From: a virus
Direction: 5' to 3' (one strand)
DNA: 64,000 nucleotides
Virus record (IMG/VR): IMGVR_UViG_3300023179_000032
Span: 1 to 64,000 of that record
Below are positions 4,027 to 4,471 of this stretch, piece after piece. Under the pieces are notes generated by a model, which saw only the letters and a program-made list of their open reading frames with translations, made no database searches and was not told the origin of the DNA. The first letter of the stretch is position 1. Each line of letters begins with the position of its first letter. The translations under genes and the position numbers were made by a program.

Positions 4027-4226
4027 TGAGTTGGGAATTGTATGAAGTCATGGCCACAGATGAACGTGGCCATCAAAGTCTGTATTATGCTACAAAGAGT
4101 CTACGAGAAGCAAGACAAATGGCACTACAGAGCTTGAAGGAAGGATTTGTTCACGCCGAAGTCAATAGGGAAACCGAAGATGGAGACAGTGAGCAGGTCT
4201 ATGCTTGCGGTACAAGGCCCCCTTAG
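4026..4226 (+). CDS. hypothetical protein
   Basis: TAATG coupling; last 10 nt overlap tRNA 5' end. Confidence 0.65.
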   Translation: MSWELYEVMATDERGHQSLYYATKSLREARQMALQSLKEGFVHAEVNRETEDGDSEQVYACGTRPP

Positions 4227-4295
4227 CTCATGCTTGGTTAGAGCAGCGGACTCATAATCCGTTGGTGCGCGGTTCGACTCCGTGAGGGGGCACCA
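4217..4295 (+). tRNA. tRNA-Ile2 (CAT anticodon, lysidine type; reads AUA)
   Basis: Full cloverleaf GCCCCCT/AGGGGGC, anticodon loop CTCATAA, TTCGACT T loop, encoded CCA. G1-C72 excludes initiator. C4-G69/C5-G68 and overall sequence resemble E. coli Ile2 more than elongator Met. Confidence 0.85.
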
Positions 4296-4431
4296 TATTC
4301 TAGCACATTCAACACTGCGGCGTTCTGTCCATCCCTGATTCGAATCGGGATATCGCCAAGCATTTCAAGCCCCGGTCGCTCCGGTCTGGTGCCTAAAAAA
4401 GAGATGGAAGAGTGTGCTAGAATATGGTGTC
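4289..4431 (+). ncRNA. putative structured RNA closed by 22-bp inverted repeat overlapping tRNA 3' end
   Basis: GGCACCATATTCTAGCACATTC (4289-4310) pairs with GAGTGTGCTAGAATATGGTGTC (4410-4431): 20 WC plus 2 GU; internal hairpins. Confidence 0.55.
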
Positions 4432-4442
4432 GGTAACATTCT

Positions 4443-4471
4443 ATTATAATACCAATAACAGGCCCTGTCAA
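4443..4471 (-). promoter_or_regulatory. perfect-consensus antisense sigma70 promoter
   Basis: Minus strand TTGACA(4471-4466)-17-TATAAT(4448-4443), pointing into the fold-back element and tRNA. Confidence 0.8.

Follow-up and report, generated by a model that had tools for sequence, protein, structure and literature searches.

The window analysed here, which covers 64 kb from the start of a 122-kb IMG/VR contig of a tailed phage, carries a transfer RNA (tRNA) gene whose trailer can fold back over its own CCA end. The 3' end of the tRNA and the bases behind it form one arm of a long closing stem, P1. The second arm lies downstream, and the two enclose a small interior RNA, referred to below as the cargo. 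Together, stem and cargo make up the element discussed here, which is faced from outside by a promoter on the opposite strand. The features of the locus are as follows.

3539..3567, + strand: nearest upstream sense promoter, an 11/12 match to the consensus.
4217..4295, + strand: tRNA with anticodon CAT and an encoded CCA, Ile2-like (lysidine type), called by ARAGORN and by Rfam RF00005.
4289..4310, + strand: 5' arm of P1, comprising G70-C72, the discriminator A73, CCA and 15 trailer bases.
4311..4409, + strand: cargo RNA termed class W, a 99-nt conserved pseudoknotted core recognized through homologues and a covariance model.
4410..4431, + strand: 3' arm of P1, in which UGGU pairs with the ACCA of the tRNA.
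4443..4471, - strand: consensus sigma-70-type promoter, a 12/12 match, reading leftward into the element and the tRNA.

With 56.3 bits against a threshold of 29, the CAT gene is well recognized as a cloverleaf by RF00005. Its acceptor stem, read from the sequence, contains C4-G69 and C5-G68, which we take to be Ile2-type determinants in the tRNA body for recognition by TilS. The top match among 5,401 Escherichia coli genomes (79.5% identity over 97%) is annotated as tRNA-Ile, not as tRNA-Met. Because of these acceptor-stem pairs and this match, the gene is likely to encode an AUA-reading tRNA-Ile2, the identity already assigned to it in an earlier note on this DNA. The other two tRNAs of the window, Leu(TAA) and Arg(TCT), lie at 6207-6371, and all three tRNAs read A-ending codons according to ARAGORN. 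An AUA-reading identity is in line with the A-ending codons that Leu and Arg read and with an AT-rich late region. Across the window, the GC content steps from 40-48% over the first 13 kb to 26-38% thereafter, and the GC skew reverses; the AT-rich structural region holds a single open reading frame (ORF) of 4,697 amino acids (42169-56262, - strand).

The closing stem pairs 22 positions, 20 as Watson-Crick pairs and two as G.U pairs on the + strand, and thus bears out the 22-bp inverted repeat through discriminator and CCA that the earlier note had described. In a repeat search, its core (4291-4310 with 4410-4429) is 95% complementary and surpasses by a wide margin every other short-range inverted repeat of the window; those reach at most 89% and are found in AT-rich DNA. 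Folding of 4289-4433, a check the same note had proposed, gives z = -4.9 on the + strand relative to shuffled controls. The promoter at 3539..3567 probably drives two ORFs, the tRNA and the element as one transcript, and a scan detected no terminator-like site between this promoter and the element. Immediately upstream, the stop codon (4224-4226) of a 66-amino-acid ORF (4026-4226) falls within the first bases of the tRNA gene.

The architecture of the element recurs in other phages. Modules of this kind were defined by a stem that starts from N73-CCA of the upstream RNA and finds its partner 30-245 nt downstream on the tRNA-sense strand. A pattern scan of IMG/VR for a tRNA end followed by the arm, allowing two free positions, retrieved 61 viral loci, and the partner arm is present in 53 of them, 57-138 nt downstream. 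ARAGORN called 1,030 tRNAs on all fetched loci, 1,010 of them ending in CCA. For each tRNA, N73-CCA and the next 12 nt (16 positions) were compared with potential partners within 260 nt. Pairing at 15 or more of the 16 positions was found for 83 of the 1,030 tRNAs, corresponding to 70 distinct modules, above a smooth background that fades by 13/16. The element of the window scores 16/16, and its cargo and arms are homologous to those of 11 other members. The Leu and Arg tRNAs, with top scores of 10/16 and 8/16 pairs, do not rise above background, in keeping with the earlier observation that they lack such a trailer.

Several regularities characterize the modules. Counted from N73, the stem is 18-23 bp long in 58 of the 70 modules, with a mode of 21, and the base right after CCA is U in 67 of the 70. 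The modules measure 65-203 nt and are preceded by 15 tRNA species. Clustering separates 52 cargo classes, some as short as 33-45 nt, and 27 arm types. Of the cargo classes, 23 occur within the commonest arm, and at least 26 arm sequences besides it all pair with ACCA. Conversely, one cargo is carried by two wholly different 12-bp arm pairs (L081 and L102 versus L084). In 10 of 62 modules, the next tRNA starts exactly one base past the partner of A76, and it never does so at offsets of 0 or 2-5; in those 10, the module therefore fills the spacer between the two tRNAs exactly, and C74 and C75 lie opposite two G residues that serve as G1 and G2 of the following tRNA.

The element is thus very likely a member of a large, widespread family of tRNA-trailer modules carried by uncultured phages. 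This family is apparently undescribed. Our literature search found no description of CCA-anchored stems, although some cargos could be included, under unnamed identifiers, among ~8,500 candidate RNAs from IMG/VR (PMC10690425). Rfam 15, searched at gathering thresholds and at E-values up to 10 with the window, L047, L050 and 13 related loci, returned only tRNA and permuted transfer-messenger RNA (tmRNA); the element itself matched no family, whereas a match to a known one was among the outcomes that the earlier note said would refute its reading. BLAST against 50,697 cultured phage records gave matches at tRNAs only. In 185,579 bacterial genomes, scans for the common arms with a 38-68-nt gap and for the class W core found no match. 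A bacterial Y RNA (YrlA) is not indicated either: Ro60/TROVE had no match in the record to which the window belongs, and Rfam had none.

The cargo of the window, class W, recurs elsewhere in the family. A conserved 25-nt core of the interior, used as query, identified 19 viral loci with 12 distinct class W sequences. These stand behind six tRNAs, namely Met/Ile2(CAT), Glu, Leu(TAA), Leu(TAG), Lys and Trp, and also behind non-tRNA RNAs that end in CCA. The helices of the proposed class W fold, in the coordinates of the window, are listed here.

4319..4322, + strand: pseudoknot helix A, 5' strand, paired with 4354-4357.
4329..4333, + strand: helix P3, 5' strand, paired with 4403-4407.
4334..4349, + strand: hairpin H2, a 4-bp stem with a palindromic UUCGAA loop.
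4354..4357, + strand: pseudoknot helix A, 3' strand, paired with 4319-4322.
4360..4392, + strand: extended hairpin of P5 (4360-4363 with 4389-4392) and P4 (4372-4375 with 4381-4384).
4403..4407, + strand: helix P3, 3' strand, paired with 4329-4333.

Across the 12 sequences, the P1 arms covary, five of their pairs showing two-sided changes. In P3, the middle pair (4331-4405) is A-U in four sequences, G-C in four and U-A in three, and the H2 pair 4336-4347 is U-A in six, A-U in two, C-G in two and U.G in two. P5 has two pairs with two-sided changes (G-C in eight, U.G in three, U-A in one), and P4 is invariant. Helix A, which crosses P3, is paired throughout (100%), but its changes are one-sided only (G-C to G.U, C-G to U.G). 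Taken as a whole, the fold has 99% of its cells paired and nine pairs changed on both sides, a result that none of 500 shuffles reaches and to which slid controls likewise come nowhere near. The pseudoknotted fold is therefore supported by covariation, as the earlier note had suggested checking across related phages. A nested, pseudoknot-free alternative fits worse and is unable to account for three pair types at 4331-4405. Both features that the note had pointed out, an inner hairpin and a GGCG/CGCC helix, were recovered at the same places. A T-arm reading of that hairpin was rejected: its loop is 8 nt or a palindromic 6 nt, not the canonical 7-nt T-loop.

The H2 loop (4338-4345 in the window; columns 47-54 of alignment A2) reads UUCGAA or UUUAAA, both of which are palindromic. 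Its central bases change jointly in L122, L124, L132 and L086, and the palindrome is kept. This pattern hints at dimerisation through a loop-loop (kissing) contact, though it may rest on a single event.

The strand on which the modules are selected was judged from the pairs that are not Watson-Crick. When elements were selected with G.U and A.C equally allowed, chance matches dominated; selection was therefore based on Watson-Crick pairs only, which is neutral with respect to strand, and 20-nt arms were then scored. On the tRNA-sense strand, the remaining positions comprise 110 G.U against 39 A.C (p = 5e-9, a value that overstates independence given that the sequences are related), and 51 elements lean toward G.U against 12 toward A.C. 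One pair of the commonest arm occurs as G-C, G.U and A-U. The covariance model agrees in direction. Class W sequences score 140-172 bits in sense and 23-32 bits in antisense, and the window scores 152.6 bits, in sense only; through the arms alone, the model also picks up ~90 further modules. Because of the G.U bias and the much higher sense scores, the selected object is very probably an RNA hairpin on the tRNA-sense strand.

Structured RNAs placed directly behind phage tRNAs are not without precedent. Theta ribozymes are minimal ribozymes resembling that of hepatitis delta virus (HDV); they lie immediately 3' of phage tRNAs and have been proposed to act in trailer processing (PMC10879173). 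Only 4.5% of the tRNAs associated with them encode CCA, and they occur in gut phages of Bacteroidota and Bacillota that are enriched for a CCA-adding enzyme (PMC10879173). Class W could accordingly be imagined as an analogue of the theta ribozymes, cleaving itself right after A76 and producing the tRNA 3' end without host nucleases. Its compact pseudoknotted core with invariant unpaired stretches would suit this role, as would the fact that it begins on the base after CCA, and the theta ribozymes themselves supply the precedent (PMC10879173). The modules differ from them, however, in that almost all tRNAs on the compared loci encode CCA, and neither the window's record nor any of five large related contigs yielded a CCA-adding enzyme. 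There is no HDV-like match at E-values up to 10, and the 5' and 3' ends of the element pair with each other in one long stem. More generally, no ribozyme family of Rfam 15 was matched up to the same E-value. Catalysis is not the general principle of the family, since about 50 other cargo classes, some of only 33-45 nt, occupy the same stem. A 2',3'-cyclic phosphate on A76 would, moreover, block charging. A self-cleaving class W is on these grounds highly improbable.

The close relatives of the phage show how freely the interior is exchanged. The same tRNA and element are present in two viral contigs and three metagenome contigs, 100% identical over ~225 nt in all of them; the upstream ORF differs by up to ~15%. 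Relatives with 74-88% identity in the upstream protein were compared at the orthologous tRNA-CAT site. There, the arms of L047 are of the same kind but enclose an unrelated interior, the interior of L050 is a third one that resembles a cloverleaf, and L052 and L056-L058 have no module, with an ORF directly after CCA. In more distant relatives, the CAT tRNA either belongs to a tight Leu-CAT-Arg cluster or stands alone, with a plain hairpin and then a promoter behind it. In ~25 of the more distant relatives (L008-L035) the three tRNAs are contiguous (Leu-CAT-Arg). In the clade of the window, 1.9 kb separate the CAT tRNA from the Leu-Arg pair downstream of it, and its acceptor stem is different. 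This separation and the altered acceptor stem suggest that the CAT tRNA was replaced or relocated together with its trailer module.

Such turnover raises the question of whether the modules are mobile or recombining pieces of DNA, comparable to miniature inverted-repeat transposable elements (MITEs), with the arms serving as terminal inverted repeats or portable recombination sites and the RNA hairpin merely tolerated. The element does have terminal inverted repeats. One cargo, class W, stands behind six different tRNAs; the orthologous site holds class W, either of two other cargos or nothing; and conserved arms surround unrelated interiors. Correia elements, the MITEs of Neisseria, are likewise inverted-repeat elements of ~100-150 bp; their transcripts form hairpins that are cut by ribonuclease (RNase) III, and their ends can carry promoters. 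They are, however, multicopy elements with TA target duplications, whereas the arm motif pair is present in a single copy in the 122-kb record, its flanks are inverted (CCA/UGG) with no direct target duplication, and the interiors are unrelated between copies. Neither a reverse transcriptase (RVT_1), as a retron would have, nor a transposase was found in the window's record, which is ~34% complete. A bias of G.U over A.C on the tRNA strand would not be expected of DNA repeats, arms that differ in sequence all retain pairing with CCA, and class W has a covarying fold of its own. A purely DNA-level cassette is thus quite unlikely.

The promoter that faces the element was described in the earlier note as a perfect TTGACA-17-TATAAT sequence ~5 nt beyond the outer arm, and this holds: at 4471..4443 on the minus strand, all 12 consensus positions match, the spacer is 17 nt, and the predicted start lies ~5 nt outside the arm. 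Judged by its sequence, it is very probably a real promoter. An RNA started there would cover cargo, tRNA and two ORFs in antisense orientation. On this basis the note had proposed a timed switch, in which the trailer hides CCA and keeps tRNA-Ile2 immature until a later antisense RNA opens the stem, thereby timing AUA decoding for the AT-rich late genes. The position of CCA within the stem is compatible with this proposal, as are the perfection of the promoter, whose chance expectation in 64 kb we estimate at far below one, the three tRNAs that read A-ending codons and the step in GC content after the first 13 kb.

The comparison with relatives does not support the switch, since the promoter is not a feature of the family and has been lost by deletion in one close lineage. 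It is intact in L007 and L046. In L006, L048 and L049, a deletion of 13 bp that lies between the antisense -10 box and the 3' arm has turned TATAAT into TATAAA, so that the promoter is no longer called, and the tRNA and element are otherwise unchanged. L050 has none; a leftward candidate there, with a 13-nt spacer, was not called by the promoter scan and was set aside. Outside the nearest kin of the window, no facing antisense promoter was found among ~70 family members, in which its position is taken by a sense promoter, another RNA or the next tRNA. The promoter is thus a lineage-specific addition outside the module. Furthermore, covariation and the G.U bias reflect selection for the sense fold of stem and cargo, the very fold that an antisense RNA would destroy, and an antisense duplex is more likely to trigger cleavage than gentle release. 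Antisense release as a timing device is accordingly very unlikely, and a local regulatory role of the promoter in this phage is possible. The fallback offered by the note, a stand-alone structured non-coding RNA, comes close to the comparative data as far as a structured RNA is concerned.

The region next to the facing promoter has further features. The interval from the leftward promoter to the first rightward early promoter contains two tandem copies of a ~24-nt motif (4520-4544 and 4552-4575); L007 has one copy and L006 two. A second leftward promoter-like site (4553..4526) overlaps these copies and is retained in L006. Between 3500 and 7000, nine sigma-70-like promoters on the + strand, nearly all with 17-nt spacers and sharing a common upstream motif, each precede a small ORF, in what looks like an array of early cassettes with one promoter per gene.

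The stem might also serve as a device at the end of an operon, protecting the transcript 3' end or stopping read-through into the promoter array in place of a plain terminator. In L010, L011, L014, L016 and L033, a simple hairpin comes after a solitary CAT tRNA and precedes a TTGACA promoter, and in several members (L070, L091 and L098) a sense promoter starts right after the 3' arm. The element itself, however, does not resemble an intrinsic terminator, which combines a GC-rich hairpin with a U-tract: the stem is AT-rich (67% A+T), no U-tract follows, and the scan found no terminator-like site anywhere in 3500-7000. Many modules also lie inside tRNA arrays, with the next tRNA right behind them. 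We consider a role as an operon end very improbable.

The explanation we favour is that P1 is a sense-strand processing stem that parts the tRNA from a co-transcribed small structured RNA. It draws on the stem of about two helical turns at the tRNA 3' end, on the exchangeable and partly structured cargos and on the exact abutment to the next tRNA, and we hold it with even confidence. According to this model, the module would be transcribed on the tRNA-sense strand, within the tRNA transcript. A host nuclease specific for double strands, of the RNase III type, would cut the stem; this nuclease step is more tentative than the processing role itself and falls somewhat short of an even chance. The short AT-rich remnant on the tRNA side would then melt, and host 3' exonucleases would trim back to CCA. 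Where a tRNA follows, RNase P would set the downstream side, and the cargo would be freed as a small RNA that keeps a closing stem of its own.

The closest parallels to such a stem are the RNase III substrates of ribosomal RNA leaders and trailers and of the early mRNA sites of phage T7, in which an uninterrupted duplex of about two turns flanks a functional RNA in a polycistronic transcript. The 22 bp of near-perfect duplex around the cargo of the window fall in this range (~20 bp or more). The modules are distinct in that their stem starts exactly at the tRNA discriminator and CCA, and cleavage of the modules is a prediction.

Four points weigh against a processing stem. First, RNase III has little sequence preference, so its specificity does not require that one arm sequence be kept across many unrelated phages, and this wide conservation is left unexplained; spread of the modules by recombination between co-infecting phages is a plausible reason for it. 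Second, an RNase III gene was not found in the window's record or in the five large related contigs, so that a host enzyme must be assumed. Third, with 52 cargo classes in 70 modules, most interiors could be unconstrained, a situation that fits a mobile or recombining DNA element equally well. Fourth, a processing stem does not account for the perfect antisense promoter of the window.

Other RNAs accompany the modules at some loci. Between modules lies a recurring RNA-like unit, ~75 nt long and ending in CCA (L082:870-951 and L084:3515-3591, and also in L078, L089, L090, L101, L110 and L118), which is called by neither ARAGORN nor Rfam. Permuted tmRNA genes of the two-piece, beta-proteobacterial type are phage-borne at L107:7893-8185, L096:13318-13631 and L069:784-1146; the gene in L107 begins on the base after the 3' arm of a module.

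Phage tRNA islands are known to hold enigmatic RNAs, among them species 1 and 2 of phage T4, GOLLD, ROOL and the theta ribozymes, and how such RNAs are made and placed is unsettled. Species 1 and 2 of T4 (rnaC and rnaD) are, like the cargos, small non-tRNA RNAs located right behind a tRNA, in their case tRNA-Arg, from which a gap of 1-6 nt separates them on the same strand; a T-arm is among their tRNA-like features, and no function has yet been assigned to them. Unlike the modules, they lack a stem that includes the preceding CCA, show no sequence similarity to them, and are two fixed RNAs with no exchangeable cargo. GOLLD and ROOL are structured phage RNAs near tRNA islands in which kissing loops matter for assembly (PMC12286853). 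They share with the modules a location near tRNAs and the lack of a known function. However, they are ornate RNAs of 580-800 nt in defined Rfam families, whose models have no match here, whereas the modules span 65-203 nt and have only the closing stem in common.

Set beside these RNAs, the modules present a simple and recurrent architecture, a two-turn stem that always starts at the CCA of a tRNA and would tie 3' maturation to the release of dozens of small RNAs. A bolder picture, which we rate as unlikely, is a cassette system in phages of uncultured, mostly freshwater communities, with a CCA-anchored adapter stem and dozens of swappable, co-processed cargos. Some of these, class W for example, would be new functional RNAs and could act as ribozymes forming the tRNA 3' end, as dimerising RNAs or as decoys for host defences directed at tRNAs. 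The family offers candidates for biochemistry that are supported by covariation, class W foremost. Should the stem prove to be a processing signal, CCA-encoding tRNAs would have a new route to their 3' end; should it prove to be a cassette adapter, phages would have a new way to swap non-coding genes.
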